A stretch of DNA of 55,930 nt from Rhizaria sp. SCN 62-66. Taxonomy: Eukaryota. Location: the NCBI GenBank assembly GCA_001724265.1, contig MEDY01000248.1:1-55930 (forward strand), written 5' to 3'. The position numbers and the translations under genes are program-made. Below, in pieces: positions 7,448-51,543 of this stretch (position 1 is its first letter; every line of letters begins with the position of its first letter). Below the pieces are notes generated by a model that had not been told where the DNA came from, did no database searches, and saw nothing but the letters and a program-made list of their open reading frames with translations.

Positions 7448-9586
7448 ATGATGAAGATCGGCTGCAAACTAGTGTTTATCTTCCTATTTGCAATTCTGTG
7501 CCTCTGTACGTTCCTATATATACCCCGAAATGCTTGCTTGTTATAACATTGCCCTCCAATCCCTCTTCTTTCCAAGCCTCCTTCTGACTTCTCCGGTTCT
7601 ATCTCTTGTGTTTGCAACACGCAAATAGACTTCGTCGCTGCACACTCGTTTGATCGTGACTACGGCAGCAGTGGCCTGCGCTCTGATCTTGCAGAGGCAG
7701 ACGCGACGGAGCGCGAGCGCGATCGCGAGCTTCAGCCTGAGCCTGAGCTCAAGCCTGCGCCCCCCGCGCTCGACGACGACCGCGACGGCCACCGCGACTT
7801 TGAGCGCGACTACAGCCGCGACCGCAGCCGTGGCCGCGAGCCCGGCCGCGCGCGCCGCTGCAGCGACCGCGCCTGCCGCCGCGCGCGCAGGCGTCTGCGC
7901 AAGCGTCTGCTGGAGCTCGAGCCGGCTGTGACGGTGTCGATGCCGCCGCTGCTGCGGGCGTGGTTCCCGGAGGCTTTCGTGGGCCCAGCGCCAGCGGCGG
8001 AGGACTACTACCGCTACCACCGCGCTGAAGCTGCTGAAAACGCGAGGCGTGACAAGGACGAGGGAAATGACATGAGCAACGATAAGGATGACAAGAACGA
8101 CAACGACGAGGACGATTACGACTAGGACGACGACTATGACAACGAGAGTGATGAGCGTGACAGGAGCCGTGAACTTGAACGTGGGCGCGTCTCCGACACG
8201 CACGACACTGAGCGTGGAGGTGGCCGCGACTACGGTCGTGCCCATGAGCGTGGCCGTGACATTGACAAAGAGAGTGACCGTGAGCGTGACCGCTAGAGTG
8301 ACCGTGAGCGTGGTCGCGAGTATCCCTATGCTCCTACCTACACTACTCAGCCCTACAGCCGTCCTTATGCTCCTAACTCGTACGCGCGTCCGTACCCTTA
8401 CACTCGCGGCCACGGGTACGCAAGACGTTACACCGACTCACCGCGCACGTACAGGTACTCAAGCCCGGACGCGTACGCAAGCCCCCGCGAGTACGGGTAC
8501 GCACAGCCCTACGCGTCCCCGAGTCTCTACGCTCGCGGTCACACGTACCCTTCGTCGCGATCAGACCCGCACTCGCACTCGAGTTTGAACTCGCCGTATC
8601 GCGATCGTGACGGAGACGGACGCCGCGCCCCCGCTGATACCAACACCGCAGAGCCCCTTGCATTCAGCGACGGCTACAGCGACGGCGACGCCATCGGCAT
8701 CGATCCCACTGACCGCGGTAGCAGCAGCGCTTACTACCGCGCACGGCTCGAACACGGTGACCGCGACCGTGAGCGCGCCTTCGACTACGGCTACAGCGAC
8801 GGCTACGGGCCGCGCGGCACCGACGGCTTCGGCAATACGCCCTACAGCGCCGGCCTCGGCAGTAACGCGCGCGACGGCTACTACTTCGACCTGGCAGCGG
8901 ACGACGCGGCCAACGCGGTCCACCGACCCGGCAGCGGCAGCGGCGACGACGCCGCGTTGGACATGGGCGGCCACAGCATCTACGGCGACAGCTTCGGCTT
9001 CTTTCGCCACCGCCGCCGCGAGCGCGACGCGCTGTAGATCGCAAGTGACCGTGAGCGCGCAGAGAGGTAGCGCGAAGCTAAGCCGCCCATGAGGCCTGCG
9101 ATCTGGAGGCCCGTCGAGCCCGATGTTAAGCCGGCCCCCGGTCGCGAGCCTCAGCCTGTCCCCGTGTCTGCCCCCGCGTCTGCCCCTGCGCATCTCCCTA
9201 TGCCTTTCCTGATGCCGATTGCACCAGTCGCCCCCGTGCCAGTCTTCACACCGGCCGAGGGCTTGGTCCCCCCGCCGGCGCCCGCCGCGCCCGCCCCGCC
9301 TCCGCCGGAGCCAGCCCTTCCCGAAAGGCCGACGTCCTCAGGCAGTGCGCACTCAAGCGGTGACGACAGCGACAACAACGACGTCGGCGGTAGTGACAGC
9401 ACCAACTACGCAACTCTGGCGACGACCGCCGCAGCCGCAGCCTCAACCGCGAGTGCAAGTGCAGGCGAGAGGGCGAGTGTAACGGCCGCGAATACGCCTG
9501 TGGTCGTAGTTGTGCGGGGCTCGGTGCCGCCGCGCCTGCGCCGCCCCCCCAGAGTGCCTCCACTCCTGCGTCCGGCGGCGTCGTAA
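7448..9586 (+). CDS. Secreted low-complexity Asp/Arg/Tyr/Pro-rich protein (671 aa), 2 exons, 4 in-frame TAG codons
   Basis: Exon 1 7448-7505, intron 7506-7628 (gtacgt...aatag), exon 2 7629-9586. The join gives a signal peptide MMKIGCKLVFIFLFAILCLYFVAAHS. ORF-track pieces 7928-8125, 8585-9037 and 9089-9586 share one frame, interrupted only by TAG at 8123, 8294, 9035 and 9068. Ends TAA. Confidence 0.75.
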
Positions 9587-10134
9587 AAAGCGAGCTGCGA
9601 CAGCCTCGGTCAAAAAGCGACCGGATGATGCTATGTAACGAAGTTGGAAGAAGACCATCAAGATATGACAGAAGTTGGATTCTGATTTCAAATATGTTTG
9701 ATGCAGAAGAAATAAAAATGACTCGTGTCTGCTCATTTGACGTTTTTATTGCGAAATTGCTTCTGCATGCTGTTGTTACACACAGCAATACTACTATTTT
9801 TGAGCTGTAACTAAGATATTTGTAATAAATAGAAGTATAAACAGACATATAAAACAAATCATCATATTTTAGTCCAAATCTATGTGATTTTGTTTTAATT
9901 TGCTCTCGTGAAGCGCTTTGAAGTGTCGGCCGCTAGGGCTGCCAAGGCAGCCTCGTCAACTTGAAAAATATATCGTGGCACACTTTGACGGCGGTCCTGT
10001 TCGAAATTCTGACTGCCTTTGCAAAAAACGTCCTGACAAGAGCAATTTAAAGTTATTGTGAAGGGTTTTCGGCGCGAAAACAAGTACTCTTCCCTTTTCA
10101 GTGCTGCGTATCTCCTCAGCTTTGCAGCTCCCCA

Positions 10135-15057: not shown

Positions 15058-17466
15058 ATGCAGCCATTGCCCCAGGACGACGACGACCCGCCTTCGTGGC
15101 CGTCTGTCCCGCAGGCCTCTTGTCCTTATTCAGCCTCTGACAGAACTAACACAGTCGGAGTCTCGCAAGCCCTGAATACCAATGCGACCGGGTCCGGAGA
15201 ATCCAGCGCGGCCAAGCCCATGTCGCCCCTGAAGGCGCTGCTGCTTGTCCCGCTGCAACGCCTGCTGGCGTCGCGGCACTTGCTGATTGTTGCCGTTTTT
15301 GCCGTCGTCTCCGCCTCGATTATCCTCAGCCCCGGCTCCAGCGGCACTGCCACTGCCACCGCGACTGCAACTGTGGCGGATACTGAGAACGGTGGGCAGC
15401 GCGTGTACGTGCGCACCTACGCCGCGATTCCCTTTCCGCTTGCAGCCGCAGCAGACGACAAAGTGGCCGACTCCGGCTCCGGCTCTGGCTCCGACTCTAG
15501 CGCGAACGCTGCTGCCGTCACAGTGCCGCCGCCGCTGCCGCCGCCGCGCTTCGGCCCCTCACCCCGGATGACGGCAACGAAGGCGGCGACAAAAACAGGG
15601 ACAGGTCTCGATACTGCTGAAACCGCTGCGCTAGCCGCCGCGCTTGCCGCCGCGGCCGCGCCAGGGCCCCTCGCTGCTGCACAGCCACAGCCACCTTCGC
15701 AGTCAAAAGCACAGCCACAGCCACCTTCAGCGACTGCGACGGCGACTGAGACTGAGACGGAGACTGCGACTGAGCCCGAGCTTGCACCGGTGACTGTGGC
15801 CGATCTGTCTCTGCCCGGGTGGGCTTGGCGGGCCTCCCCTTGGGACCCCGCAGTCGTGGCCGCCCACAAGCAGTAGCAGCAGAGCGATGGGCGTATGCTC
15901 ATCGTAGTTCCCTTCTACGACACATTGAACGGCAACGTGTTTAACGCAGCCAGCAGCAGCAGCGAGTTCGTCGCGTCGCGGCCGCAGCGGCTATTGCTGC
16001 AGCTGCTGCACTGCCTCGACCGGCACCTGCGCTCTCTGGGCCGCCAGCCAGGCCGCGACTACGCGGTCCTCGTCGTCGAGCAGCACGCGGCTCCAAGTGT
16101 AAGCGCCTCCTCAGACGGCGCCACGCGCGGGGAGACGCTGGCGTTTGCACCCGGCCAGCTACTCAACGCGGGCGCATGGTTGGCGCGGGACTGGGGCTAC
16201 AGCTACATCGTGGCGCACGACCTCGACCTCTGCCCCCTCCCAGTCCCAGTTGCAAGCGCAAGCGCAGTCGGCGCTAGCAGTGGCGGTAACAGCGATAGCT
16301 TTTCTGCCAGTGTCAGCGTCGGTGCGAGTGCGAGCGAGATCAACGACTACCGGCTGCGCGCCGACGGCCTGCCGCTGCTCCTGGCCTCCGCGGTGCGCAA
16401 CAGCAACGGCGACGGCACCGGAGACAGCGATAACCTCGACGACGCTGGCACCTATCGCGAGAGCGGCCACGGGCTCGGCGGCGTGTTTGCGGTGTCTCTC
16501 GCGCACTTCTTCCATATCAACGGGCTCCCCAACTTGCACTACCTGCCCTTCGCCCCAGGAAACACCCTCGCTCTCCGAGACAGTCCTAGCCGCCGCGACA
16601 GCGGCGACTGGGACTGGGCCGGCGGCGGCGTGACGCTGCCGGGCGCCGAGGCCGAGGCCGTGCTGCTACGGTCGCGTTTGCAGCGGGCCGTGGGTGTGCG
16701 CCGACTCGGCTCCCGGGAGGGCCGCTACGCCAGACTCGCTGCGGGGCTCAGCGGCGAGGAGGCGCGGCAGCTGCGGCGCCAGCAGCAGGCACGCTTCGGT
16801 GGCAGCCAAAGCCACAGCGACGGCGACCGCGACAGCGCCGGTGTTGGCAGTGGGAGTGCGAGCGCTGTTCGTGCTGATGGAGGTGTGCTGGCGTTCAACA
16901 GCAGGCGCAGGCTCATTGCGCACCTTTTTGGCTACGAACTCGACGCCAGCAGCGACTATCCCCCACGTAACAAGACGAACGCGAATTCCACGGACACCGA
17001 TACAAAGACCGACACGACTGCGCCGACCGTAGTCCCGTCGTGGTTTGCCGCAGACGGGGCCGCCGAGCTCAACGCGACCGTGCTGGCGTACGCGCCGCTG
17101 CCCGCGCTGGGGCCGGTGCACTGGGTGACGATGGGCGCCGACTCGCTGCGCTACCGGCCGGGCCCCGACGGCGTGGAGCCGCGCTCGCTGCAGCGCGCGC
17201 GGCTGCTAAATGGGCTGCCGCCGCTCGCGGCGCTGGGGCTGGGGCTCGACGCGCTCGGCCGCGCGCGCCTCAGGCCGCCGCCGCACGCGCCGACTGCGGG
17301 CGCCAGTGCACAGGAGAGCGCAGAGAGAACGGAGGGAATGAGCGCTGAGGGCGGGCTAGGCCGCGGCGCGCTGGACGCGATGCGGGCCTTCGTGCGGCAG
17401 GAGCGGGCGCTGCACCGGGCGCGGGGCACGCGCGTGCACCCCCGGGAGCTCGCGCTCTGGGTCTGA
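15058..17466 (+). CDS. GT7 family (beta-1,4-galactosyltransferase-like) type II membrane protein, paralog A (802 aa), one in-frame TAG; acceptor-side motif degenerate
   Basis: ORFs 15058-15876 and 15895-17466 are in the same frame, separated by TAG at 15874-15876. N-terminal TM (HLLIVAVFAVVSASIILS), then IVVPFYD, DYAVLVVEQ, FAPGQLLNAG, AHDLD, GGVF..F.HINGLPN. Colinear with the uninterrupted paralog downstream. Ends TGA. Confidence 0.8.
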
Positions 17467-21018: not shown

Positions 21019-21092
21019 CGCTTCTGGCTGGGCTCGAACCAGCGACCTTGCGGTTAACAGCCGCACGCTACTACCAACTGAGCCACAGAAGC
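21019..21092 (-). tRNA. trnN-GUU: tRNA-Asn (anticodon GUU), intronless
   Basis: Minus strand GCTTCTG TGGCTCAGTTGGTAGTAGCG TGCGG CTGTTAA CCGCA AGGTC GCTGG TTCGAGC CCAGC CAGAAGC G. Perfect 7-bp acceptor stem, 5-bp anticodon and T stems, A and B boxes. Confidence 0.96.
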
Positions 21093-21420: not shown

Positions 21421-22841
21421 ATGAGTTCAAAACCTGCTTCTGAACCCGCTGCAAAGCCTACAAAAGTATCTCGCAAGCGTGCCGCCGAGCCAGACAAGGA
21501 GGGTGGTAATGAAGGCAAAAAGGACAAAGATAAGAACGGCGGCAAAGAGCGGGACAAGTCGACTGCAGGGACGACAGCGCTGCATTTGGGCTTCGTGCGC
21601 TTTCATCGCGCAGCAGTGCAGCTCGCCACGCTTGCCGCAGCGCGCGCACGTCCCCTGCTGCTCTCTGAGCTGCCCCCCGCCCTCCTGCCCCTCCCAGCGA
21701 CGACGATGACGGCTGCGGCAGGCGCTGGCTCGGCGCAACAAGGAGGCCATGTGCTCCCGCCGCAGCCGCTTCCGTGGCTGCAGCACAGCCTGCTGGCGGC
21801 GAATGCGGCGCTGCTGCGGTCGCGGCCGCGGCTGCCGCTGTGCGCGCCGACCGTGGCCGTGCCGGTGTCGGCCTCGCCCGCAGCGCCAGCTGGCAGCTGG
21901 GTCGCCGCCGCGCTCCTCTCGCTCTCTCTCCCGCCCTCGCGCGCCCATGTCCACGCCGACGCGGGAGGGCCGCTGCGCGTGCCGGTGCTGTGGCTGCCGC
22001 ACCGCGCGCTCCGCAGCTCCGGCGGCGGCGGCGGCGGTGGCGGCATGGCGGGGCTGGCGCTGGCCGCGCTGCCCATGCTGCCGCTGCTGCGCGCGCGCGC
22101 GCCGGGGCCCGGGCTGCTGCGCTGCGCCGAGCGCGCCGCCTGCGTGCGCGACTGCGCCGCCGCGGCCGCCGCCGCGCTCGCGGCCGAGCTCGCGCTCGCC
22201 AAAAGCGCAGCCGCGACAGCAACAACGACTGCGGGTGGAGCTGGAGCTGACGCTGATGCAGAAGAGGTGGACGGGGCTGCAAACGTGAACCCGGACGCGA
22301 GTGCAAGTCTCGGCGAGCTCGCCGCCGCGGGCATCCCGCTGGGCCCCCTGGCCGCCGCCGCCGTGCCTGCCGCCGTCATCTCGCTCTGCCGCGACGATGA
22401 CGCAGCAGCCCCTGAGTGTGGCGCAGCCGATGCGGCCACTGCTTCCGAGTCGGCGGCCGCTGTGTCGGCGGAGCTGAGGGAGGCACGGCGGGAGCTGGAG
22501 GAGGCCGTGGCGGCGCTGCGGCACGCGCAGGCCGAGGCAGTGGCCGTCGCGGGCCAGCGCGCGCGCTACGACGCGCACATAACCAGGTACGCAAGCCAGG
22601 TCCATAGATCATGAACTTTGGTAACTCTGCACAAATGTTGTATGTACGCGAAGCTCATCGCATTGACACTGTTTCTGCTATTGTTTGTACTTCTGTGCTG
22701 CTCGCGCCGCGCAGGCTGCACGAGTACAACGAGATCAAGGACGTGGGCCAGGCACTGCTGGGCATGTTGGCGCAGATGGCCGGCGGCGGCACCACAACCA
22801 AAGACCTGTACGAGGTCTATGGGCTCGAGTTCGACGACTAA
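21421..22841 (+). CDS. SWI5: DNA repair/recombination mediator Swi5 (Sae3) homolog with long N-terminal extension (430 aa), 2 exons
   Basis: Exon 21421-22586, intron 22587-22714 (gtacgc...gcag), exon 22715-22841. The join gives YDAHITRLHEYNEIKDVGQALLGMLAQ...TTKDLYEVYGLEFDD, the Swi5 signature. Ends TAA. True start codon uncertain. Confidence 0.88.
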
Positions 22842-31735: not shown

Positions 31736-31964
31736 GAATTATTGATTTATAGCGGATATGATCCGTCAATAGAGAACTCATTATTACCACATTTTAAAAG
31801 TTTAAGCACAGTTTTTATTCATCATATTATAACTTTCAAATCCCTTTTCATGACTTCTTTCCAAGTAAGAAGAGCTTTGGCGCCTACAACTGCAAAACCA
31901 GGTTTCCACTTTCCTTCTTCCGAACATCTCGCGCTTCACTTTGACGCGTAGAAGCCACTCCACG

Positions 31965-34900: not shown

Positions 34901-37436
34901 CGTGCTCTTCTGCGACGCGCGCTTTGCCGGCGCCGACTGGCGCGCGCGCCTGCCTGCGTGGCTCGCGCCCAGCGTGCGCGTCTTCCGCCAGTTCGGCGAG
35001 CTGGGCGCCGCGCTCGGCGCCTTCATGGCGCACGCGCAGGCTACCTACGCGCCCGACGACGCCGCGGCGGCCGCGGCCGCGGCGGCCGTTGCCGCGGGCG
35101 AGGACGCGCTTGCCGCGCGCGAGGCCTTCGTCGCCGCCGCAGTCGCCGCGTCGGCCGCCGCGGACGGGCAGGGGCAGGTACAGAGGCGGCGCAAGGCGCG
35201 GTTTAACTGGGGCGACGGAGGCGACGACGCGGGTGGCGCGGGCGGCGCGGGCGGCGCCGCGGGTGGGATCGAGATTGACGCCGAAGAGGAGGCCGACTAC
35301 GCGGCCTGGGGCGCGCTGGGCGGCGCCGCGGCGGCTGCGGCGGGCGCGCGCGGGCTGCGCGCCGAGGACGCGCGCGCGCTGCTGAGCGAGGCCGGCGCGG
35401 AGCTGCAGGAGAGCGCCGACGCGGCCGAGGCGCAGACGCGCGCGCGGGCGCAGGCCGAGGCCGAGGCGGGGCGCAAAAAGACAGCGCGCTCCGTGAACAT
35501 ATTTGCGGCCAAGAACAACAACAGTAACAGCAGTGGCAGCAGCAGCGCGGACGGCGTTAGCACTGCTGGGTTGAATCGGGCGCAGTCTCAGCCACAGGCG
35601 CAGCCTCAGGGACCGGGACCGAGCAAGCTGGCGGCCCTGCTGGGAGGCAGCAGGAACAGTAATCCGACCGTGAACCTCAATAGCCACAGCAGCAGCGCTG
35701 TCAGCGCTGTCAGCGCTGCGAGCGCGAGTAGCTCGACCGCGGCGTCTGCGAGGGCGAGTAGCGAGAAGAAAGGCACGTTGGAGTCGTTCTTCAGCTCGGC
35801 ATCGTCCTCGTCTTCAAACAAGAGCAGCAGCAACAGCAATTCCAGCAATGGCACCAGCTCCACTCGTTTCACCACTCATACCGGCAGGAATGACGCGCCT
35901 CCCGTGCCGGAGCTGAGCCTCGACGAGACGCGCGCGGCGCTGTCTGTGCTGGTGTCGAGCGTGCGCAGCCTCTGCCCGCTGCGCGCCGTCGAGGCCTTCA
36001 TGCTCGCCTTCCGCGACGCGCGCAACGCCGCCGCCGCCCCCACTGGGAGCAGCAGCGGCAGTGCAGGCGAGGTGGCCATCGTGTACAATCGGATGGTGGA
36101 CGCGCTCATGACGCTGCCGGAGTTCTTTCCTCGCGACAAGAGCGCCGCGACGTGCGGCAGCGTGGGCGCGGGCGGCCGCGAGAGCAGCGAGGGCGTCACC
36201 ATTGGCGGCTTCGGCCCCGCCTACAGCGACCGCAAAGCGCGCGACGCGAGTGCGTCTTCGAGCGCGCGCGCGTTCGACCTGTTGCAGCCGCTGCGGTGCC
36301 GGTCGCAGCTGCTGCTGCGGCTGCTGGCGGTGCTCCCCGCGGGCCACCATCAGACCTTCCGCGCCGCCGTGCGGCGCGCCTTTGCGGCCCGGGCCCAGGC
36401 CGAGGCCGACGCCGAGGCCGACGTCGAGGCCGACGTCGAGGCCAGGGCCGGCGCTTCCGGGGGGCTGGGCCAGGGGACGCTGGGCCGGGGGCTGGGACCG
36501 GTGCTGGAGCTCGAGGAGACGGCACGGCGCGACCTGGCGGAGGTGAGGCGCCGTGATGCTGAGGCTGCGGCCGCGGAGGCTGCTGATGCTGCTGTGAAGG
36601 CTAAGGTCAAGGCTGAGGCGGATGCTCAGACGGAAACCAAGACTCCTGGTAGTGGTGGTGTGAAGACCGAGGCTGCGGACGGAATAGCGGCGAAGGTTAA
36701 GATTGAGGCAAAGTCGGAGGCGAAACGAGTGCAGCAGCAGGAGAGCAAGCAAGAGCAACAGAATTAGCAGCCCCAGCGGCAGCCCAACAGCGAGCTGCGC
36801 CCGTCAATCAACAGCTCCACCACTCACACAACTCCCAGCATCACCGGTGGCGACCCGCGCGTGCTCTTGGCGGACCTGCGCGCGGCGTGCGGCCCCGCCT
36901 TCGCAGACGTGCTGGGCGCGGTCGCGGCGCTCAACACGGCAGCGCAGGCGCTTGCCGCTGTGCGCAGCGCGCTGACCGCCGCCATGGCCAGCGGCGGCGG
37001 CGATGGCGAGGCAGCGGCCGAGGCCGAGGCTGAGGCTGAGGCTGAGGCGGCGGTGGACGCGGCGGCGGGGGCGCTGGCGCGGGCCGTGCGGGCGGGCGCG
37101 GACGCAGCGCGCGCGGCGGCGCTGCTGCAGCAGCTCGTCGCCAAGAACAACGAGGCGCGCGGGGCGTGGGGGCGCCAGGCCGCCGCGATCGAGCAAGAGA
37201 GCCGCGGTCAGAGCCTCGGCCAGAGCATCAGTCAGGATATCGGTCAGAACCGCTGTCAGGGCGCCGGCCATGGCGCGGGCCAGGGCGCGGGTCACGGCGC
37301 CAGTGTGAGCGCGACTGCGAGCGAGGGCGAGAGGCTGGGACAGGTGAAGCGTGGGCTCGAGGGCGCTTCCGCTGACGGCGCTACTGTTGCTGGTGACAGT
37401 GGCATTGGCGCTGTTGGGAAGAGGGCTGCGCCGTGA
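31965..37436 (+). CDS. RTEL1: Regulator of telomere elongation helicase 1 (XPD-family Fe-S DNA helicase, 1765 aa), 2 exons, one in-frame TAG
   Basis: Exon 31965-33368, phase-0 intron 33369-33542, exon 33543-37436. VEFPFEPY..Q, LLESPTGTGKTLCLLC, IIYSSRTHSQL, four Fe-S Cys (LCTN, VCR, QCP, LCGYF), PYNYL, DEAHN, YWCF, LTSGTL, FFPSY, VCRGKASEG.DF.D, RAVNQAVGRVIRH..DFGA. Harmonin-like region LLLRLLAVLPAGHHQTF and PIP-like KKGTLESFF. TAG at 36765-36767 is followed in frame by 222 more coding-like codons to TGA. Confidence 0.92.
32334..32410 (+). repeat. Perfect 36-nt tandem duplication inside RTEL1 (GASAAAGAGAGA x2)
   Basis: ggcgctagcgccgctgcgggcgcgggcgccggcgcg occurs twice in tandem. Confidence 0.85.
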
Positions 37437-37873: not shown

Positions 37874-40481
37874 ATGAGCAGTCAGGTTTAGAAGAAAGCT
37901 CTACTGACGAGTACTAACGGTATGTATCCACGTTGTTTCCCGACTCAAGCCAAAAGCCTTGAGGACCCGAAAAGTACGCTTGGTCAGCGACGCCCAATTT
38001 TACATTTTTAGAACATCAGCGCACATATTTCAAACTCATGAGTCTCATGATATTCTGTCTTCGTACTTTTTCTATTTCTTTTGCGACTCGCCTTTGCTCC
38101 GCAGCTGCAGCTGCCACCGTAACAGCTCCTCCCAAGCGCGTTCCTGGTGCTATCAGGAAAGCCGATGATCGCCCCTCCCTCGATAGCGCACTTAAGCGTG
38201 TACGTCTCACTTACCATGGCCACGTCTTTTTCCCCACAACAGTTAAAACACGTTTCTCGTTCATGATGTTTTTCTCTCGTCCTCGTTTAGGTTTGTTTGT
38301 CTCCCTCCAACTCACATTTTCCCCTCTCATTCTCTTTCCATCGCCTCCCATCTCTCCAATCTTTCCCATCAGGAGGACGACGAGGACGGCACTAGGTCCG
38401 GTCAACTTGCAGATGACGAGACCGTTATCCACAAGAACAAGCGCTTCTGCTACGCATCGTCCGACCCTCAACGTCTCAATAACGACGACAGCAACGTGAA
38501 TGCCGAACTCCAGTCTGCTTTGGACAAGGCTAAGACGAAGCTTAAGAACGCTGAGACTGAGCGCGATGCGACTGCTGCTAAGCTTAAGAAAGCTCTTGAC
38601 AAAGAGGATGCGGCTCAGGCCAAGCACAGCGAGGCCTTGGCAAGCGCAAGACCTCCAATAAGAAGTTTCAAGCAGAGTGTAAAGCCAAAGAAAAAGGAAA
38701 AGAAGTAGCTAAGAGCTATAAGGCTGATGCTGATGACGCCTCGATGGAAGCGTACACGGCCCGCAGGGAACACGAGAAGGCAACGATATGCCGGAAGGAC
38801 GCAGACGAGAAGTTGCGTGTGGCTAACGTGAAGCTCGATGTGGCTCAGGCTGAGCTCAATGTCGCACAAGCTACTATCGCCGTGGCCAACGGTGCCGCGA
38901 CTGGCTCTGACGACTTGACTCTGGCTGATGCGTACTTCAAGGAGGCTGTCTTGAGCTTGCTAAGGAGCATCTCTACGACGCGTCCGTCGTGGTGCTCGAC
39001 GCCCTTAAGAAGATCACGCAGGTTGAGTCTTGCCGTTCGTCCGGACGAAAGGTCAATCAGGCTTAGCTGAGCTCAGCCCAGGCTGTGCATGCGGCAGCTA
39101 AGACTGGGCAAATGAAAGCTAAGATACAGCTTAAGACGGCTGAAGAAGAGTTGAGGGCGGTGCTACATGTTCTTCGTCGTACGCCTTTAAATTTCTCTAA
39201 AGCACAATATTTTCAATATTTTTAAAAAGCAAACGCGTTTGTCATAGCATTAATCATAGTAGCAGCGTGTAGAAATACGTTTCATATGATATATTCCTTT
39301 ATTCTCAGCGTGCAACTGAGATGGAAGTTGTACGGGCATACGATGAGATATTCAACAAAGCTCACGATGCGATGGCATTCGATTCGGCACCCGCGTACTT
39401 CCACACTCTCGACGCGCCTGTCGGTGCATTCTTCCCCTTTGGCGGCACTGGTCCTGATGATGCTTCAATTCAGCGTCTACTGCTGCGCAAGACCCACAAT
39501 GGCCTTCACCGAGGTCTTCTGACTCAATTGCAAGCCCGCAAAGTTGGCGACTAGGGCCTCGGGCGCACGTTTGTTGTGCGCTGCCCGCCCGGCGCTGGCA
39601 AGTCTGCGATGTTAAACTTTGTGTGGTACGTCGCGCGCTTCAAGCTCAACATGGACGTAGTCTGTCACTTCCTTGACGATACACTTCACCTGTATCCGTC
39701 AACAGACAACACGTCAACCGACACGGTTGAGCTGTTGGACAAGAAGGACGTCAAGCCATGGCTAACCAAGAAGAACGCGGTGTACCTCTTTGATTCTGGA
39801 GAGGATAACGGTCGGCCCTTGTATGCCCCGGCGAATGAGGCAACCAGCATGATTGCTACATCTCCGTACCTGAAGCACTACAGCAACGTCTGCCCGACAG
39901 TTAGCTGCACCTTTACTAACGACCCTAACGTTGTTCCCCTATGGTATTATGCGTGGAGCTATGAAGAGATTGTAGATGCATTTCCACTGTTGCGCCAGGT
40001 TTACACACTTGACGCAGCTGAGAGCTTGTCCGCCTATGTCAATGGTAACTTCCGGTATGCGTTGCAGCTGGCAAATGGAGACAAGACCGAAGACATGGCT
40101 CGTGAGCTCAAGAAAAAGGCTTTTAACGCTGTTTCCCCGTTACTAATGGGCAAGCTAGACAATGAACAGGAAGACTTGGCCGAGCCACTGTATGATAACT
40201 GCATTACTCGCTCCAACGCGCCAAACTATTCGCACCACATCATGTCTTTCTTGCTTAGTGACGAAGCCAGTCGCCTCACGTGGTCGCCTCAAGAGCGGCT
40301 TACGGCGTACGAGCAAGACAATCGTGCGCACGACGCTGAGGAGATGAAAGAGGATGGGGATTTCCTCTACTTCCGCGAGTGCCGTCTTACTTGGGTAACC
40401 AGGAGCACTCAACACGAGTTTGTTCTGAAGCAGAATCCCATGACTTTTCTGATGGCAAACTTTGCTGGTTGCTTTAACTAA
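37874..40481 (+). pseudogene. Coiled-coil + Crinkler/RHS-type P-loop NTPase gene, frameshifted (pseudogene or assembly errors), with in-frame TAGs
   Basis: Phase-compatible exons 37874-37919, 38105-38199, 38373-~39178, 39309-40481. The Lys/Ala/Glu coiled coil needs frame changes near 38640 and 38950, and the third intron phase does not match cleanly. NTPase part FVVRCPPGAGKS...AVYLFD...IATSP...HY...AWSYEEI resembles CRN/RHS NTPases. Lower GC than neighbours. TAG in frame at 37889, 39064 and 39552. Confidence 0.6.
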
Positions 40482-41120: not shown

Positions 41121-44100
41121 TCACTGCTGCTGCTGCGCGTTCTCGTCGCCGGCGGCCTGCGCCATGCGCTCTGCGTGCGCGCGCATACGCTGCAGCAGCG
41201 CGACCATGCCTGCGTTCTCAGCCAGCGCTGCCGCCACCGCGGGGTCTTGGTCCATGCCGTACGCAGCGCCGTGAGCAGTGCCATGCGCGGTGCCGTGCGC
41301 ACTCGCGGGGGAGAGCGCGGGCGACTCGGCGCTGCGATTGGCAGCAGCATCCACAGAGCGAGTGTTGGCGGTGGAGTCAAAGCCGCCGGCCGCGGCGAGG
41401 CGCGCAACCTCGGCAGCCACCGCGGCGGCCTCGGCCCGCTCCGCGACGCTCAGAGGCGCAGCGGCCGACGAGGCGGCCGACGCAGACCTGTCAGACTTGT
41501 CGGCTGCGGCCACGCTGGTGGCGTTGGCGTCGGGCGCGACGGATGCGTCGTCGCTGACGATGCTGATGTCGACGCCGCTGTTGGCCGCGGCCTGGTCGCC
41601 GTAGAGGCCGCTGACGATATCAATGTCGTCGTCGCCTTCGTCCTCGTCGCCGTAGCCGCCACCGTCAGCGCCGTCGTCATCGTCGTCGTAGTCCTCGTCG
41701 TCGTAACTTCCGCCGCCGCCGCCGCCGCCGCTGAGGAGGTCGCTGTTGAGCAGGTCGCTGAGGCCGTTGGCACCGCTGAGGCCGAAGCTGCGCATGAACC
41801 GGCTGATCTACCGCGCCACCGCGTCCCCCTCAGCGCCCACGTCAGCGTCCGCGTCAGCATCAGCGTCAGTGGCAGCATCAGCAACCGCATCAGCAGCAGC
41901 AAGAGCAGCGCCCGCGTCGTCATCATCGCGGTCGCCCTCATGGCTCGCGGCGCCCGCGCCGGCCTCGGCCTCGTTGAGCATCTGTTCCAGCAGACCGGTC
42001 TCGACTAGCTCGTGCAGGGTCTCCTGCGGGCGAACGCAGAAAGAAGAAAAGGGGTACAAAAGAAGTGAATTTCGGTGTGCACGGACGAATGCAATTACGA
42101 AACATTATTTTTTATATCACGTGTTAGAACGTACCGGGTCCATGTCGTCCAGCCCCATCTGGGCCAGCAGCGCGCGGATTTGGTCATGGCCTTCATGGCC
42201 CTGGCTCTGGCTGTGGCTGCTGTTGCTGTCGGCGCCGTCCGCGGCGGAAATACGCTGCGCCATCTGCGCTATCTGCGCCATCTGCGCCATCTGCGCCTCC
42301 AGCTGCTCCACCTCGCGCACCATCGCGGCCAGGTGCGCCGCCTGCTCCTCCGCAATTTCCTCCGCGTCTTCGGCGTCGGCATCAGCAGCGTCGGAGGCAA
42401 ACAGAGCAGCGCGCGCTTCGTCAGTGTCGATGTCGGCGTCGGCGTCAACAGTACCGACCTCATCGTTGCCGCTGTCGCCGTTGTCCTCGCCATCGCCGTA
42501 GTAGCCGTCGCCCTCGCCGGCGCCGTCGCCCTCAGCGGCGCCAAACTGCTGCGCAAAGGCGGCGTCCTCGGCCAGCCCCTGCATGTGCTCCATGAGCTGC
42601 TTGAGCTGCGCCAGCTGGCGCTCCTTCTCGGCCAGCTCGCGCACGCGGCCCTGGAAGTCCGCGCGCGCGTCCGCCGGCAGTGTCTCCAGCACGTCCGCGA
42701 TCGTCATGCCTGCGAGAGCGGGATAGTGCAAGTGTGCATGCCAGTGAGTCAGGCGGTGAGAGCATTGTGTGGGTGTGTGAGTCAGTGAGTAAGAGATGAG
42801 TTGTAATATAGACAAACAATTTTGGCGGAAGATTCATGTGATATACAGTTGAAGCAAGGATTTTAGTTAAAATTGAAGTATTCTTTCAGTAGTAATGACG
42901 TACCAGCGGGAAGATTCAGCAGCAGATCGCCGTCGGCGTCCTCCTCGTCATACGCCTCAGTCTTAGCCTCAGCCTCAGCCTCAGCCTCGGCGTCAACAAG
43001 AGCGCCAGCCTTGACGTCGCCAGAGTCGTCGCCAGCGCCGGCGCCGGCCTGGACGATCTCGGCCTCAGTGGCCTGCGCCTGCTCCTCGGCGGCGCGCGCG
43101 GCGGCCTCGACCGAGTCTTTGAGCGCGCCCAGCTCGGCCAATTGGCGCTCCAGTTCGGCCATGTCGCCGCGCTTGCGCTTGAGGTCGGCCAGCTGCGCCA
43201 GCGCCTCCTCGCGCGCGGCCTCAGGCAGCAGCAGCAGCTCCAGCGCGGCCGAGACCGGGATGTCAAACTCGGCCGCAAAGCCAGACAGGAACGCCTCCAT
43301 CTCGCTGTCCGAAGCGTCAGCGTCGACGTCAGCAGCGGTGTCGGTGTTGGCGTCAGGAGCCTCTGCGCTGTCCTGGGCCTGGGCGGCCTTGACGGCATTA
43401 GCGGCGGCGGCAGTGGCGGCAGGGGTCTCGACCTCGATCACAGTCTCAACCTTGTTAGCCTCAGCCTCAGCGTCAGCATCATCGTCAGCCTGGTCCTTGG
43501 CTTCAGCATGAGCCTCAGCCTCAGCCTCAGCGTTGCCAGGGTCCAGCTCGTTCTCCCGCTCCTGCTCGATGGCCTCGAGCGCATCGCGGTGCGCTTGCAG
43601 CTGTGCCTCGCACGCGCGCAGCTCGCCCTGCTTCTGCGCCCAATGCACGCGCACGGCGGCCACGGCCGCGCCCGTCTCGTGCAGCTCGGCCAGCTCAGCG
43701 GGCGACTCGCGCGCCGCCGTGATGATGTCCAGCGCGCTCACGCCCAGCTCGCGCCAGCCCTCCAGCGACAGCGGGCCCAGCAGCCAGGCGGGCAGCTCCA
43801 CCTCCTCCGCAGACGCAGCCTCAGCCTCAGCCTCGGTAGACCGAGCGGTCTCGGCAGACTGAGGCTCGTGATCAGCGGGCTTGGCGCCAGGCTCGGGAGC
43901 AGCGTTTGCGTTGCTGTTGTTGTTATCGGCGGCGGCGGTGGGGGTGTCAGAGTCAAACTGCTCGTTGGAGTAGTCGTACTCGTCACTCTCAGCTCCACCA
44001 GCGCCAGCATTAGCAGCGAATGTCGACTTCGACTTAGACTCCGCGCTGCCATCAACGTCCTGGGCGTCATCCTTGTCGCCGGCGGCGGCAGCCTCGGCGT

Positions 44101-47100
44101 CCATGGCGTCGAGCAGATCCTCGCCGCCCGGCAAACCCAGCAATGCGGCGACCGTGCGCACCTGCTCTGCTAGCATCGCCTGCGGGTCACGCATCGATGC
44201 AATAATGCAGTATGAGAGACAAATGGAGATATGAAAAACAGATGTGAGGTAAACAACCAAGCCATTCAAATTACAATTCAGATCATGTTTGCGATTCATG
44301 TCATTGATATATGCATCCAAATCCAGCGATTATCGGATTCCACGAACCTGGTCGCTCTCGTCGAGCTCCCCCACGTCGAGTCCCGCGGGCAGCGATGCGA
44401 GCACCCGGGCCAGCGCTCGGTTCAGCAGCTCGTCGCTCGGCTTGCCGTCAGACTCAGGAGGCTCCTGTCCGTCATGCTGCTGCTGCTGCGCGTCGGCCGC
44501 GGCAACCGCGGTGGCCGCGGCGGCGGCGATCGAGTCGTGCTCGGCCTTGGCCTGCTCGAGCTGCGCCAGGAGCTGCTCGCGCATCGACAGCAGGGCCATG
44601 AGCTCGGCCTCAGCCTGGGCCACCTCGGCCGCCTCGGCCTCCGCGGCCTCGGTGTCGGTGTCAGCGTCAGCGTTGTCGGCGTCAGCGACAGCGTTGGCAC
44701 CGTTCGCGATCGCGCGCGCAGTGCCCTCGCCTTCGCCGTTGTCGCCTTCGCGGCCGTGGTCGTCATCGAACACGGAGGGCACGACGCGGGATCCGTCCTC
44801 GCGCGTCACGGCCAGCTGCGCCAACAGGCGGTCCAGCGTGATCAGTCCGCTGCCGTTGCCGCGCACCGCGCCGTCACCGTCGCCGCCGTCACCGTCACCA
44901 TCGCCGTGGGCGCGGGCGTCATCCTCGACCGTCTGCATCAGCAGCGCGAGCGAGTCCTCGTCGATCTCGATGCGCTCCTCCTCCTCAGCCTCAGCCTCAG
45001 CCTCAACCTCAGCCTCAACCTCAGCCTCAACCTCAGGCTCAGCGGCCTCGGCCTCGGCCTCGGCCTCGGTGCCAGACCGAGTCTGCGACTGCGGCTGCTC
45101 GTCTGTGAAGTGGTAGTACTCGTCGCCGGCGTCCCCGCCAGCCGCACCGTCGCTCTCGTCGTTCCCGTCGCTGCTGCCCTGACCGTGAGCCGCCGCAGCC
45201 GTGGTCTCTGCGGGCGACGCGGTCTTTGCGGGCGACGCGGGCCCTAGCGGCAGGAAGGAGCGGCCCACGCCCATGCGCTGCAGCACCAGCTCCAGCGCGG
45301 CCGCGTCGTCGGCGGCGGCCGCGGCGGCCATGTCCTTGGCGAAGGCGTCCATGTCCACGTACAGCGCCTCGTCGCGCCCGCCGCCGCCAGACTGCTGCGC
45401 CTGCTGCGCGTGTGAGGATGCGTGCGAGAGCGAGTGCTGTGCGTGGGCGGGCGTGCGGAGCGAGTCGGTGAGCGCGGAGAGGTCGGCGTTGCGGCGGCGG
45501 GCAGCACTCTCGCCGCACTTGGCCACCTCGGCCGCGGCCTCGGGCGACTGCCGCAGCAGCGCCGCGATGCGCCGGGCCTGCGCCTCGCCGTACGCGCTTT
45601 CACCTTCCTCGTCATCAGCCTCAGCCTCGGCCTCCGCCTCGGGCTGCGTTCGCTCTTGGGACTCAGCCTCAGCCTCAGCGTCGGCGTCATCGGCGTCATC
45701 GGCGAAGTCGGCGTCGGTATCGGCCGTGTCGGAGTCGGCGCTGAGGCGCACGAGCCGGTCGACGTGGCCCTGCAGCTCCTTGAGCTGCGCCTCAACGTCC
45801 GCGCGCTCGCCCTCGACGCCGTCGAGCCTGCCCAGCACGGCCTCCTGCAGCGCGACCAGCTGCTCACAGTCGGCCGCCGCCGCCAGTGCGGACGCCTCGT
45901 CGCCGTCCGCCTCGGCTAGCAGCCGCTCAACCTCCCGCACCAGCGCCAGACGGCCGTCATCCTCGCTGTCCTCCCCCGCCTCGTCATTATGGGCGGGGAC
46001 AGAGCCGGAGCGGAGCGCCTCGAGGTGGCCTGCGGCGGCAACGCGCGCAGCCCTGGCGCGGTCAGCAAGCGCGCCCGCGGCGGCTGTGGCGTCCGAGAGG
46101 TCCCCGTTGGCGCGCTCGAGCAGCGAGACGAGCTCGGCGCGCTGCTGCGAGAGCGCGCCCCGGTGCGACAGCAGCAGCGCACTCAGCTCCGACGCCGCGC
46201 GCAGAGACGACGCCAGCGACGCCGCCTGCGACGGTGACGAGTCTGCGCTCTGAGAGTCGTCGTCGGCGTCATCGTCGTCAGCGGTGGTGATGAGGACCGG
46301 GGACAGGGGGCTGTCAAGCTCGGCGTTCTCCACGGCGTACGTCTTGGCCACGATAGTGCCAGCGCCAGCGCCAGAGCCAGAGCCAGCGCCAGCGCCAGCG
46401 CCAGCGCCAGAGCGAGAGGCAGAGCCAGAGTGGGACTGAGAGAGAGAGCTGACGTCGACACGCACGCCGAAGTCGTCGTAATCGTCGCTCTCGTCATCGT
46501 ACTGGCCGTCGTCGTCGTCGTCATCGTCGCGATCGGCGCCCGCGTCCGTACTATGGGCGGGGGCGGGGGTGGGGATGGGCCCGGCGAGCGAGACAGGGAC
46601 GCCAGCGCGCCGGGAGGCGAGGATGCGCTTGCGCAGCGCCAGCGTCGTGGGCGCGTCGTGCACGATCATCGGCACACGAGACAGCGCTGAGGGCGAGGAC
46701 GCTGAGGGCGAGGGGGAGCCACGGGACTGCTGGGGGCGCTGAGACTGGGACTGGGACGGAGACATCTCGTACGGATTCTCATAGTCCTCGTCGTTCTCGT
46801 TCTCGTCGTCCTCATCATCGTCGTGGGTGTCTTCGTAGTCCGGCTGGTCGCTCAGGTAGCCGAAGTCAAGCCGGGCAGCGTCGAAGTTAGGCCGCTTCGC
46901 CGCCGCGTCGACAGACTGGGCGGGATTCGACTGAGCGTAAGCGTTGCCGCTGCTGCTGAGGGGCTGGGCGTGGGCGGCGTCGACCCCGGCAGTGAGGGCG
47001 TACACGGCCTCGGGACTCAGCCCGTACTCGTCCTCCTCGTCCTCAGCAGCAGTGTTGCTGTAGCCACGGCCGTAGTCGCCGTTGTTTTCGTAGCTGTCGT

Positions 47101-50100
47101 ACTCTCCGTTGTCCTCCTCGTCGTCGTAGTCCTCGTCGCTCACGTGCGCAGCGCGCCCGCCGCTGCTGTCACAACCGTTGAGACCGCGGCCAGCGCCAGC
47201 GCCAGCGGAGGTGGCGGTCTCCCCGACGTCCATGGCGGCCATAGCCGCGGCCGCGGCGGCCTTGGCGGGCGCTGAGAGACCCAGCCAGCGCTCGAGCGCG
47301 GGCAGCCCGCCGCGGCGAACCCAGTCGGGCACGCGGCCCTGCGCCACCAGCCCCGCACAGTCGGCCACGCCCGCCGCCGCAACCGACAGCGGAGACGCAG
47401 AGAAATTGAGCCGCGTCGCGTCGCTGCCGCCGGCGGCGGCGGACCGGGGGGGCGTGTTGGTGGCGCTGTTGCCGCTGCCGCAGCGGGGGCGCAGGAGGAA
47501 GTCGTTACCGTCAGCGTCAGCGTCGTTCTCGTAGTCCTCGTCCTCGTAGTCCTCGTCCCTGTTAGCGTCAGAGGAGTAGTAGCTCTGGCCGGGGGCGGGC
47601 GCCACGAACACGTTGCTGTTGTCGCCGCCAGCGCTCGCGTCGGCGTGGCCGTACACGCCCTCGTAGTCCGCGCTCTGCGCCTGAGCCTGAGCCTGAGCCT
47701 GAGACTGAGACTGAGTGCTGGAGCGAGCAGAGCGGGCGACAGGCTGGTACATGGCCTCGCGCCGGCGGGCCTCGGCCACAGCGGCCGCGGAGCCCGGCGC
47801 AGCGCGCTCGGCTGCCAGACGCGCCAGCCGTGCCTCGGCCGCCGCGATCGCGCCCGCGGCAGCGGAGTGCGCACTCGCGTTGTGCGCGCCATCAGCGTCA
47901 GCGTCGGCGTCGGCGCCGTCGCTGCTGCCGTGGACGTAGGTGCCGGCCAAGGAGCGCGCGCGGTGCGGGTCCACGCGCGACATCCAGGCCGTCACGTGCG
48001 CGCGCGCGCGGCCCAGCGCCGCGTCCGCAGCCGCCAGGCCGTCGGCACCGTCTCCGTCCGCGTCAGGGTCAGCGTCAGGGTTAGCTTCGTCGTCCAAGTC
48101 GCGGCCATAGTCGTCGTCATCGTCGGCGTACTTGAGGGCGTACTCGTGGTCGCTCACGTAGCGCCGCTCACGGTCACCGGAGTTACTATGGGCCGAGGCG
48201 GGGGCCGCGGGGCCGGCGTAGTAGGCGCGCATGCGCTCCGAGAGCAGAGCCGCGGCGTCGTCCTCGAACTGCTCACGGTCACTCTGCTCGCGGTCACTCC
48301 GCTGCTGCCCATGGTCGTTGTACTCGTAGTCGAACTCGTTGTCCTCGTCGTCGTCGACCGTCGCGGCGGCGGCGGCGGCGGCGGCGGCCGCGGTGGCGGC
48401 AACCTGCTCGAAGCGCTGGTGAAACGGGTAGTCGCCCCCGTCGTCCCCGTCGTCCTCCTGCTCGTAGTAGCCGCGACCGTTGCCGTTGCTGAGATCGTCG
48501 GGATCGCCGTCGCCGCCCCCGTAGCCGAGGCCGTACTTCGGGCTGGCGCCGCGGGCCGTCACCGGCCGCGGGCTGCCGCTGGCGTTGCCCTGGTATAGCG
48601 ACTGAGACTGCTGCTGCTGCTGCTGCTGCTTGCTGGGGGTGGCGTTGCGGCTACCGTAGCCCTGGCCCTGACTCTGGCCCTTGGTCTGCTTGGTCTGCTC
48701 GAAGGAGGACATGAGCGCGCCCAGCCGCGCCTCGCGCTCCAGCGCCTCGGCCTCGACATGCTTGCGCGCGCCCGTCGACAGTCGCACCTCGCGGAACAAC
48801 CGCGACGACGACGCCGGGCTCAGCGACACCGCGCCGCTGCCGCCGCGATTGCTAGTATAGTCGGCGTCGGCGTCTGCGTCGGCGTCCGCGGCTGCGGCGT
48901 CTGCGGCGGCGGCCTCGGCGGGGCTGTAGTGGAGCGAGTTGTTGCTGCGGTCCAGGCGCAGGTGCGCGGGCAGCGCGGCCGAGGCGCGCTCGAGCGCGTC
49001 GAAGCGCGAGTAGAGGCGGTCGCGGTCCCAAGCGAAGGCCTGCGCCAACAGACCGAGGCGCTCCGTCTCGGCCGCGTCGTCGTTGTCGTCGGCCGCCGTC
49101 GCGTCGCGCTCCGGCCCCCGCTTGCGCTGCTGCTACTGGTACTGCTGCTGCTGCAGCTGGCGCTCGATGGCGCGGGCCTCAGCCTCCATGGCGGCCTCGG
49201 CCTCAGCCTCCGCACGGGCCCGGGCATCAGCTTCAGCCTCAGCAGCCTCCGCCTCAGCTGCCTCGGCGGCGGCGGCCTCTGCAGCGGCGGCGGCGCCGGC
49301 CTGATAGCCCGCAAGGTACTGCTCATAGTAGCCCCCGCCAGCGCCGGCGACCTGCTCCTGGTCGTAGTCGCTCTCGTCGTCGTCGTCGTCGTCAGCGTTG
49401 TTGTTGGCAGCGTAGCCGCTGCCCGAGTTGCCGGCGCTGACGGCTGCGTTGCCGCCGCGGGAGCTGGCGTAGGTGAACTGGACTCTCTGCGGCGACTGCA
49501 GACGCGACTGCAACTGCGGCTGGGAACGGATGATTTGGTCATAGTACGCACGCTCAGCCTCAGCCTCGGCCTCGAGAGTGCCCGCGTCAGCATCGTCGTC
49601 ATCGTAGTCGTTGCCGTTGGTGTTGCTGTAGTTCAGGTGATACGACTCCTCCGCCTCAGCCTCTGCCTCTGCCTCCGCCTCTGCCTCCGCCTCTGCCTCC
49701 GCCTCTGCCTCCTCAGCCTCTGCCTCGGCGGCAGCGTCCTCCGCCGCGGCTGCCGCGCGCGCCGCCGCCTCGGCCGCAGCCTCCGCGGCCTCGGCGAGAG
49801 CCTCGGCGCGCGCGCGCTCGCGGTCCGCCACATCCCGCAGCGGCGACCGCCCGGGCCCGGGGACGGTCCGGCCCCGGCTCGGGCTCAGACCGTGGCCGTG
49901 GCCGTAACCGTAACCGGGGCTCTGGCTCTGAGCGCCAGAGGCGGAGACCTGCTTGAGGGGAGACCGGCCGTGGCCGCGACCGGGGGTGGCAAGGCGGGCC
50001 TGCGACTGCAGGAGGGCCTGGGTCTGCAGCGACTGCAGCGTCTGGATGGGGCGGCCGCCGGCGGGCGTGCTGCCCGCACTGGCGGTGTGACGAGTGGGCG

Positions 50101-51543
50101 TGGCGGCGGCAGCGGCGGCGGTGACCGTGGCCGCCGGCAGCTGCTGCAACTGCTGCTGCTGCTGGGCGTTGAAGTAGGCCGCGGAGGGGGGCGAGCGCGC
50201 CACGAAGGGGCTGCCAGACGGCGCGGGCGCAGGGACAGGCGCAGGCACAGCGGGGGCGGGGGCGTAGACGTCGGAGTAACGGACGAAGCCGCCGTGAGCA
50301 GAGTGGCTGTGAACAGGGGCGACATGAGCGCTACTTAGACCGTCGCCGCTGTCCAAGTAGGCGTACGCGTACGGGTTCGAGTAAGGGTCCTCGACAGCGA
50401 CAGGAGCAGCAGTCGTGTAAGTACCCTAGCTGTAAGTACCCTGGCCGTAAGCCCCACCGCGCGGCTGACCGCCGTAGGCCCCAGCGTAGCTCACGCCGCT
50501 GCCCCCGTTGCCCTCGCTGTCGCCACTGCCCCCGACATGGCCGGGCAGCGCGATCTCGAAGGGCTGGTGCGGGGCGAGGCTGGCGAGGTGGCTCAGGACC
50601 GTGGGCAGCGTGAAGGTCGCGCCGCCGTGGGTGCGCGACCGCAGCAGCAGCAGCCCGCCACCAGCGGCGCTGCGGGAGGCGGGGAGGCCGAAGCGGGCGC
50701 GGATCCTGTGAGACATGAGATGAGATTTGAGCAAAAGAAGTGAAGAAGTGAGATACAAGTTGAGAAAGAGCAATAGAACACGTCATTCAACATATTTCGA
50801 GACTATCGTCGCGATGTCTCGGCATGTGCGACGTACCGCGCGTCGAGCTCGCTGGGCGTGGTGACCGAGGGCGGGGCGAGGAAGTGCTCGGTGACGCCGC
50901 GGTGGGCCACTGCGACGAAGGCCAATGCCGCGCCGGGCGTCGCCGCCGCCAGCCGCGGGTCAGCCAGCGCCGCGGAGGCGCTGCTGGCGGAGGCGTTAGC
51001 AGCAGTCGTCAGGGACTGCAGCTGGGGCTGGGGCGGGGGGACGTTTCCCATGGCTGCGGCGACGGCCGCCTTGGCCGCGGCGCGCGCGGCGGCGCGGGTG
51101 GGCAGCGCAGTCTCGTAGACCGCGGCACTGGCGGCGGGGCCCGTGGGGACGGGGCGGCCGAAGCGCGCGGACAGGCGGCGGCGTGTGGGTGAGATGGGGT
51201 CGGTGACGCCGGGGACGTAGACGGGCGCCGCGAGGCGGGCGGCATGTGGCATCAGCGGGTGCGCGTTCGAGGGTGTGAACGACGGCGAGGGCGGCGCGCG
51301 CGGCTGCGGCGAAAAGCGCGGAGCCGCCGCCGACGCGGGCAGCGATGACAGCGACGGCGACGCGGCGTACCCGGCGTACCCGGCCCCAGCAGCAATCGCG
51401 GCAGCGCCGTTGTAGGCGGCGGCGCGCTGGGGAGAGGACCAGGCGGGGGCACGGGCAGTCGCCGCGTGCAGCAGGTCCGCCGGGGACGGGGGCGCGCGCG
51501 CAGAGGGCGTGCGGGAGACCCAGGGGGAGCTGCGGGACGACAT
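41121..51543 (-). CDS. Giant acidic, Ala/Asp/Glu-rich coiled-coil protein of unknown function (~3272 aa), 5 exons, 3 in-frame TAG codons
   Basis: Exons 51543-50837, 50705-44348, 44179-42904, 42709-42135, 42023-41121. All four GT-AG introns are phase-compatible (2, 0, 1, 0), total 9819 nt. TAG in frame at 50426-50428, 49133-49135 and 41808-41810, each flanked by continuous coding-type sequence. Ends TGA. Confidence 0.8.

Follow-up and report, generated by a model that had tools for sequence, protein, structure and literature searches.

The presence of in-frame TAG triplets in several genes of one stretch of DNA has led us to ask whether UAG is read as a sense codon in the organism that carries it, while UAA and UGA still terminate translation. 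The stretch as a whole (hereafter the window; 55,930 bases, 64% GC) recurs in public bioreactor, wastewater and activated-sludge metagenomes of several studies and in one polyA metatranscriptome, and it is clearly eukaryotic nuclear DNA, since its GC-rich exons are split by AT-rich introns and accompanied by AT-rich intergenic DNA. A preliminary description of the window had proposed precisely this division of the stop codons. Its core reading, UAG as sense and UAA and UGA as stops, fits every test that we ran within this one 56-kb window, and the organism is thus a probable further member of the known class of UAG-only reassignments.

The first line of evidence comes from the use of stop codons. 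Over the 18 annotated segments of coding sequence (CDS; 12,405 codons in total) the sense frame contains ten internal TAG and neither TAA nor TGA, which bears out the claim that intact genes lack the latter two; the other five frames of the same segments contain 71 to 383 stops each, TGA always among them. At about 0.8 per 1,000 codons, UAG is nevertheless a rare sense codon. TAG is also missing from gene ends: the 14 ends that can be defined in the window are TAA (six) or TGA (eight), and an incomplete gene at the left edge likewise has TGA (238) as its end. The number of ends and the absence of TAG agree with the preliminary description, the split between TAA and TGA, given there as five and nine, does not, because the TGA at 22612-22614 in the SWI5-like gene lies within a 128-nucleotide (nt) intron (22587-22714) that had been missed and the true end is the TAA at 22839. 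Each of the 14 TAA or TGA ends has an AT-rich stretch of 100 nt or more at a distance of 0-73 nt, whereas the ten TAGs are 343-6,070 nt away from the next such stretch. A coding-like frame is closed by TAG only once in the window, at 50803 on the minus strand, and this TAG sits in intron 1 of the giant gene described below. The features concerned are collected in Table 1.

Table 1. Coordinates of the genes, in-frame TAG codons and other features of the window to which the text refers.
Feature	Position	Strand	Remarks
PRP18 TAA stop	3275..3277	minus	conserved C-terminus; second in-frame TAA two codons on
R/D/E/Y/P-rich low-complexity gene	7700..9586	plus	TAGs at 8123, 8294, 9035, 9068; TAA end at 9584
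GT7-A, glycosyltransferase family 7-like	15220..17466	plus	hydrophobic N-terminal stretch; TGA end
GT7-A TAG	15874..15876	plus	between conserved stem block (DLSLPGW...) and catalytic domain (MLIVVPF...)
tRNA-Asn(GTT)	21019-21092	minus	sole RNA gene found in window; between GT7-B and SWI5-like gene
SWI5-like gene	21412-22841	plus	last exon 22715-22838; TAA stop 22839..22841
RTEL1 helicase gene	31965..37436	plus	exons 31965-33368, 33543-37436; ends TGA at 37434
RTEL1 TAG	36765..36767	plus	C-terminal tail (...KQEQQN-TAG-QPQRQP...)
P-loop (STAND-like) NTPase gene	39321..40481	plus	TAA end at 40479; start may be further upstream
NTPase TAG	39552..39554	plus	residue 78; 8 residues before P-loop strand (FVVRCPPGAGKS)
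Giant gene	41121..51543	minus	ATG at 51543; TGA at 41121-41123
Giant-gene exons	51543-50837, 50705-44348, 44179-42904, 42709-42135, 42023-41121	minus	
Giant-gene TAG, codon 328	50426..50428	minus	X2/X3 DNA contigs cover 50096-51599, 0 differences
Giant-gene TAG, codon 759	49133..49135	minus	flanked by Gln codons (...QQQQYQ-TAG-QQRKRG)
Giant-gene TAG, codon 3043	41808..41810	minus	last exon; downstream score 0.84, GC3 0.88

The triplet itself was found at all 12 positions named in the preliminary description (as CTA on the plus strand for the minus-strand gene), and the frames given there are open once TAG is read through: 7547-9586 with four TAG, 15055-17466 with one, 33471-37436 with one, 39201-40481 with two and, on the minus strand, 44330-50782 with two. 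Since GC-rich DNA readily yields long open frames, the six frames were compared on each side of every TAG by means of a coding score, a codon log-odds trained on the Pfam-supported open reading frames of the window in which stop codons are neutral. The TAG-containing frame comes top of six on both sides at 15874, 36765, 41808, 49133 and 50426, and on the downstream side only at 39552, in a gene of lower GC; the score is weak after 8123 and after 9035, and there is no signal at 37889 and 39064. The proposed continuity of coding composition in the same frame thus stands fully at the first five sites and in part at 39552, is weak at two sites of the low-complexity gene and fails at 37889 and 39064. 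When all 2,632 scorable stop triplets of both strands were scanned for a score above 0.35 in both 60-codon flanks, four TAG but neither TAA nor TGA were retained; three of them are sites discussed here and one lies in an antisense frame. None of the ten TAGs falls within an intron, in agreement with the reported lack of splice signals around them. Taken together, six TAGs (15874, 36765, 39552, 41808, 49133 and 50426) are solidly placed inside coding sequence, and a coding position of the four TAGs of the low-complexity gene is plausible but weaker.

The giant minus-strand gene provides the longest test of continuity. Its four GT-AG introns of 131, 168, 194 and 111 nt leave a CDS of 9,819 nt, which is divisible by 3 and amounts to 3,273 codons with a GC content at third codon positions (GC3) of 0.84; apart from the three TAGs and the final TGA this frame is free of stops, and the remaining two frames of the same strand contain 30 and 151. 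After the first TAG there are 2,944 more codons and three introns that preserve the phase. If this TAG terminated translation, all of this, with its GC3 of 0.84 and its phase-preserving introns, would have to be an 8.8-kb 3' untranslated region. The continuity of this gene rests on frame, codon bias and splicing and not on homology at the TAG sites.

Homology reaches across the TAG in two other genes. GT7-A is a tandem paralogue of GT7-B (18297-20471; BLASTP 3e-67, 37% identical), for which Pfam gives weak matches to Glyco_transf_7C (9.5e-05) and 7N; the alignment of the two spans the TAG in one frame, with Leu as the GT7-B residue at this position. The public protein database carries only the post-TAG part of GT7-A (P0007), which means that gene callers stopped at the TAG, and a word-seeded search of 5.8 billion database proteins for relatives of GT7-A returned only the window's own two genes. 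In both paralogues the N-terminal part includes a hydrophobic stretch, and long inserts of low complexity are present. The P-loop NTPase offers a broader comparison. Read with TAG as Gln, it gave 12 matches when 1.84 billion cluster representatives were searched exhaustively with HMMER, and a profile search added four family members. Nine homologues (P0130-34, P0136 and P0142-44) align without gaps across the TAG with conserved blocks on both sides, the upstream one being FPFxGKG...LLLRKSHxxLY and the downstream one the P-loop FLVRGPPGTGKS, 8 residues beyond the TAG; in the TAG column their residues vary (A, S, V, V, N, N, A, A, N). In databases the window's NTPase is present as two proteins, P0135 (residues 1-77) and P0129 (97-386), an indication that automatic gene callers broke the gene at the TAG.

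RTEL1, recognised by Pfam (DEAD_2 2.6e-45, Helicase_C_2 1.9e-41 and ARCH_RTEL1 2.8e-08), has its TAG in the C-terminal tail, and continuity rests here on frame and codon bias and not on homology at the site. The two exons are separated by a 174-nt intron (GTACGT...CAG), and 222 codons in the same frame, with a GC3 of 0.88, follow the TAG up to the TGA. The next AT-rich stretch begins only 669 nt after the TAG, and the first downstream in-frame ATG lies well within the coding-like part. A search of the post-TAG tail for a harmonin-homology domain gave no Pfam match below E = 9.

The TAGs were then compared with independent assemblies. Positions 31600-51599 of the window, which cover the sites from 36765 to 50426, were set against the contigs of four runs. 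X2 and X3, whose statistics are near-identical and which may be one data set, belong to the same campaign as the likely source of the window or to a related one; X4 comes from a separate study and a strain that differs by about 0.5%; X5 is a polyA metatranscriptome from a separate study and a slightly different strain. DNA contigs of X2/X3 bridge 39552, 41808 (span 41744-42926) and 50426 with 0 differences, and a contig of X4 bridges 39552 unchanged. In X5 the TAG is intact at both sites that are bridged, 36765 (record 26, 36101-36810) and 49133 (record 30, 48647-49236, with two differences elsewhere, at 48826 and 49097). The claim that the TAGs are present in DNA is therefore upheld at 39552, 41808 and 50426; in RNA-library contigs the TAG is kept at 36765 and 49133. 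As the X5 contigs carry TAG there, editing is not seen at either site. The depth of X5 is zero or near zero over 37603-40937 while X4 covers this region evenly, which speaks for real RNA and not carried-over DNA in the X5 contigs.

It might be argued that both UAA and UAG (UAR) are reassigned, as in codes of the NCBI table 6 type, with TGA as sole stop and TAA too rare to be seen inside genes. Codon usage gives some room for this: with CAA and CAG in a ratio of 38:452, about one in-frame TAA is expected for ten TAG, and the absence of internal TAA is uninformative alone because only about one is expected. The decision comes from the ends. Six of 14 genes end with TAA where coding bias stops and AT-rich DNA begins, and two of these TAAs stand at conserved C-termini. 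In PRP18 the Pfam Prp18 profile matches over positions 4-142 of 143 and ends 9 residues before the TAA, and residue 241 of the 251 of yeast Prp18 aligns with residue 148 of the 161-residue query, 13 residues before the TAA. In the SWI5-like gene the Pfam Swi5 match (1.6e-12) places profile positions 43-79 of 80 on residues 1-39 of the 41 that precede the TAA, and this TAA is, like that of PRP18, trailed by further in-frame TAAs. The other four TAA ends are located at a drop in coding bias or GC. On account of these terminal TAAs joint reassignment is ruled out, and we grant it next to no probability.

Several observations weigh against a sense reading of UAG. None of the TAGs stands in a strongly conserved alignment column, and five of the ten lie in low-complexity sequence. 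Neither strand nor ends nor translation can be read from the RNA contigs, and none of those listed crosses an intron. The strain comparison lists 21 differences, 6 of them intronic or intergenic, and the 15 exonic ones divide into 4 synonymous and 11 non-synonymous, with no clear signal of purifying selection. The codon-phased antisense frame of these GC3-rich genes contains TAG 30, TAA 5 and TGA 36 times, and this richness in antisense TAG makes the result dependent on the assignment of strand and frame. With the codon usage of the window, TAG would be the outcome of 73-76% of random nonsense mutations; under a pseudogene model the probability that ten of ten are TAG is about 0.05, so that the exclusive occurrence of TAG is a weak argument by itself. 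The coding signal falls after 8123 and 9035, and 9035 could be a true stop. Finally, the evidence comes from one 56-kb window, in which 14 gene ends are a small sample.

Some of these points would suit a standard code in which each TAG is either a genuine stop or a nonsense mutation, in pseudogenes, truncated alleles or misjoined gene models, the open frames being a product of GC content. GC-rich DNA does yield long stop-poor frames, antisense frames also hold TAG, random nonsense mutation favours TAG and the gene callers behind public databases stopped at these TAGs; moreover, the NTPase lies in a lower-GC island without RNA-library depth and with raised strain variation. An antisense artefact can be set aside, since Pfam domains and homologues fix the strand of RTEL1, GT7 and the NTPase, and for the giant gene splice orientation and codon bias do so; homology, splice orientation and codon bias likewise support the assignment of frame. 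A standard code would also require five of about 17 genes to be broken, including the window's single RTEL1, yet no frameshift, TGA or TAA is found among them. Furthermore, the giant-gene introns stay in phase over the 2,944 codons past the first TAG, coding-type codon bias persists past each strong site, a second strain and the RNA-library contigs retain the TAGs, and the real gene ends abut AT-rich DNA as the TAGs do not. We therefore find the standard code very improbable.

A third possibility is an ambiguous or leaky code, in which UAG would stop some genes and be efficiently read through inside others, either by context-dependent stop/sense decoding as in Condylostoma, karyorelicts and Blastocrithidia or by strong near-cognate readthrough. 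That no more than 10 of 12,405 sense-frame codons are UAG is in keeping with it, as is the drop of the coding signal after 8123 and 9035, and 14 ends are too few to speak against occasional termination at TAG. A C at position +4 is a leaky stop context in eukaryotes, and it is found at 4/10 sites. On the other hand, TAG closes none of the 14 definable ends, the ten sites share no common downstream motif, and three TAGs in one CDS of 3,273 codons would compound the losses of product if readthrough were anything less than near complete. A leaky code appears improbable to us on this balance, and a UAG that is regularly read as sense is the reading with which we continue.

The low-complexity gene deserves a separate word in this respect. 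Its frame is without TAA or TGA over 7547-9586 and is the sole stop-free frame in 8297-8640 and in 9071-9586. Of its parts, 7700-8122 and 8642-9034 have a good coding score, 8126-8640 and 9038-9586 one near zero, and the gene has no Pfam match. As for 37889 and 39064, which the preliminary description had already called weaker sites, we do not retain them as coding: neither side has a frame that exceeds the others, and the flanks contain further stops. An exon at 39064 was considered as the coiled-coil N-terminus known from NTPase homologues and rejected, as the 38929-39168 frame matched P0144 and P0130 only at E of about 1 in BLASTP and a phase-consistent splice would require a non-consensus donor. 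Strain differences are raised over 37889..39066, where the RNA library has next to no depth.

If UAG is indeed sense, it would be read by a tRNA with a CUA anticodon that cannot read UAA, and eRF1 would no longer recognise UAG, in what is probably an uncultured, GC-rich, intron-bearing eukaryote of bioreactor and wastewater communities. The same combination of tRNA(CUA) and altered eRF1 has been proposed for the fornicate Iotanema spirale and the rhizarian exLh, and a GTS substitution in eRF1 is reported for Iotanema. Which amino acid is inserted can at present only be guessed. Gln is our first guess and Leu the second, Gln being preferred because it is one transition away from CAG and has the commonest precedent. 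Gln codons adjoin three of the ten TAGs (15874, 36765 and 49133), and Gln is the following residue in 4% of cases overall and in 15% after Gln. Internal repeats disagree, pointing to Gln at 50426 and to Glu at 8294. Alignment columns give Leu at 15874 (GT7-B) and A, S, V or N at 39552 (NTPase homologues), and Leu reads naturally at several TAG sites. Neighbour-residue likelihoods were tried and produced no winner, K/S being top over the 10 sites and S/K/Q over the 6 strong ones.

How does this code compare with those already described? UAA and UAG are nearly always reassigned jointly, and split meanings are reported from no more than a handful of lineages (PMC11687900). In Iotanema spirale UAG encodes Gln while UAA and UGA are stops, and gene ends comprise 104 UAA against 15 UGA; in exLh, a member of Sainouroidea known from an insect transcriptome, UAG encodes Leu and UAA and UGA are stops, with 384 UAG in 71 genes and 56 UAA ends against 15 (both from PMC5304391). 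PMC11687900 adds UAG as Ser in Scotinosphaera, as Gln in Protocruzia tuzeti and as Leu, Gln and others in phyllopharyngean ciliates, and PMC10553269 describes UAA as Lys and UAG as Glu in Oligohymenophorea sp. PL0344. The list of split codes in the preliminary description was incomplete, as it did not name Scotinosphaera, Protocruzia and the phyllopharyngean ciliates.

The window resembles Iotanema in that UAG occurs in frame, never at ends and relatively scarcely, UAA is kept as a stop and Gln codons adjoin 3/10 TAGs, and it resembles exLh in splitting UAR and in the Leu of GT7-B at the TAG column of the window's one paralogue alignment. It is unlike Iotanema, which ends its genes mostly with UAA, in preferring TGA (TGA 8, TAA 6), unlike exLh, where UAG is frequent, in using about 0.8 UAG per 1,000 codons, and less inclined to UAG than both. 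Against Iotanema stand also its 64% GC, its GC3 of 0.87, its AT-rich introns of 111-194 nt and its origin in wastewater and bioreactor samples. Identity of the window organism with Iotanema or exLh is thus unlikely, because the window organism is GC-rich, TGA-preferring and a rare user of UAG. The codes of Scotinosphaera and the ciliates just named share with the window a UAG whose meaning differs from that of UAA; a long contig, long genes, GC-richness and introns above 100 nt set the window apart from ciliates.

Codes in which both UAR codons mean Gln occur in many ciliates, some ulvophytes, hexamitid diplomonads, Streblomastix and Amoeboaphelidium. These codes are like that of the window in the capture of UAG from stop to sense, probably by a Gln-type tRNA, and unlike it in that UAA terminates here, at 6/14 ends, two of them at conserved C-termini.

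The phylogeny of RTEL1 gives no placement. Its best matches, at about 27-46% identity, are spread among oomycetes, plants, green algae, animals and other groups; one match reaches 70% identity over only 13% of the query, and the metagenomic RTEL1 that looks closest (P0090) has just 35% identity. In a tree of 32 sequences the window falls outside the clade of green plants and green algae (Shimodaira-Hasegawa-like approximate likelihood ratio test 98) and outside oomycetes; its branch has a length of 3.33 and joins a second long one. The organism is probably flagellated, given that the window encodes DNAAF5. In the literature consulted, supplementary tables excepted, no wastewater or GC-rich non-ciliate eukaryote is described with this code. 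It is tempting to hypothesize, at slightly less than even confidence, that UAG was captured independently of Iotanema, exLh, Scotinosphaera and the ciliates, with UAA and UGA kept, in an uncultured, GC-rich, intron-rich and probably flagellated eukaryote.

If true, this would be an additional non-ciliate origin of a split-UAR code, at low UAG usage and in a GC-rich genome. Each independent case is of interest as a test of how tRNA(CUA) and eRF1 distinguish UAG from UAA, and the present one would bring a contrasting genome type, GC-rich and TGA-preferring, beside two founding cases that end mostly with UAA. As the organism is present in several public runs, its genome, tRNA set and eRF1 as well as metaproteomic confirmation are within reach. 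There is also a practical side to it: in public protein databases standard callers have cut these genes at TAG, with the consequence that proteins of this organism are mis-annotated, and perhaps also those of NTPase-family relatives whose gene calls begin just past the P-loop.

These relatives are known as metagenome proteins only, several with long N-terminal coiled coils, and scans of prokaryote-genome and viral collections returned none. Weak matches to nSTAND_NTPase5 and AAA_16 occur, each in 2/9 members, and the protein could be a lineage-specific or mobile STAND-like NTPase. Its gene lies in a lower-GC island (37603-41135; 0.51-0.55 against 0.64-0.75 around) with more strain differences than the adjacent genes, and 38 nt (39868-39905) are absent from the X4 contig. 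Three relatives, P0137, P0138 and P0145, begin at or just after the P-loop (with MLNL..., or with M for the V of VRGPP), as P0129 does. No functional NTPase would begin at such positions; the upstream parts of these three may also be interrupted by an in-frame TAG or by introns, and the truncated starts hint at relatives that share the code.

The genes recognised in the window are PRP18, a 2OG-Fe(II) oxygenase, a MutS homologue, the two tandem GT7-like glycosyltransferases, SWI5, a C2HC zinc-finger protein, DNAAF5, RTEL1, the P-loop NTPase and YIF1. A scan of public metagenome contigs gave a single match, L001, of 4,178 nt and identical to part of the window, and scans of viral and prokaryote genomes gave none. 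Exon GC3 is 0.87 in the Pfam-supported open reading frames, and the AT-rich introns (111-194 nt) have GTACGT or GTTCGT donors and YAG acceptors. This strong shared donor might serve as a signature for binning more contigs of the organism, and so might the extreme richness of its proteins in low-complexity runs (poly-Ala, AE, DA, SQ and TA repeats and acidic runs). Finally, a small GC-rich island on the minus strand (25172-25345), for which Rfam gave no match, stands within an intergenic region of 0.29-0.39 GC and contains a short coding-like frame from an ATG near 25343, possibly a small gene or exon.

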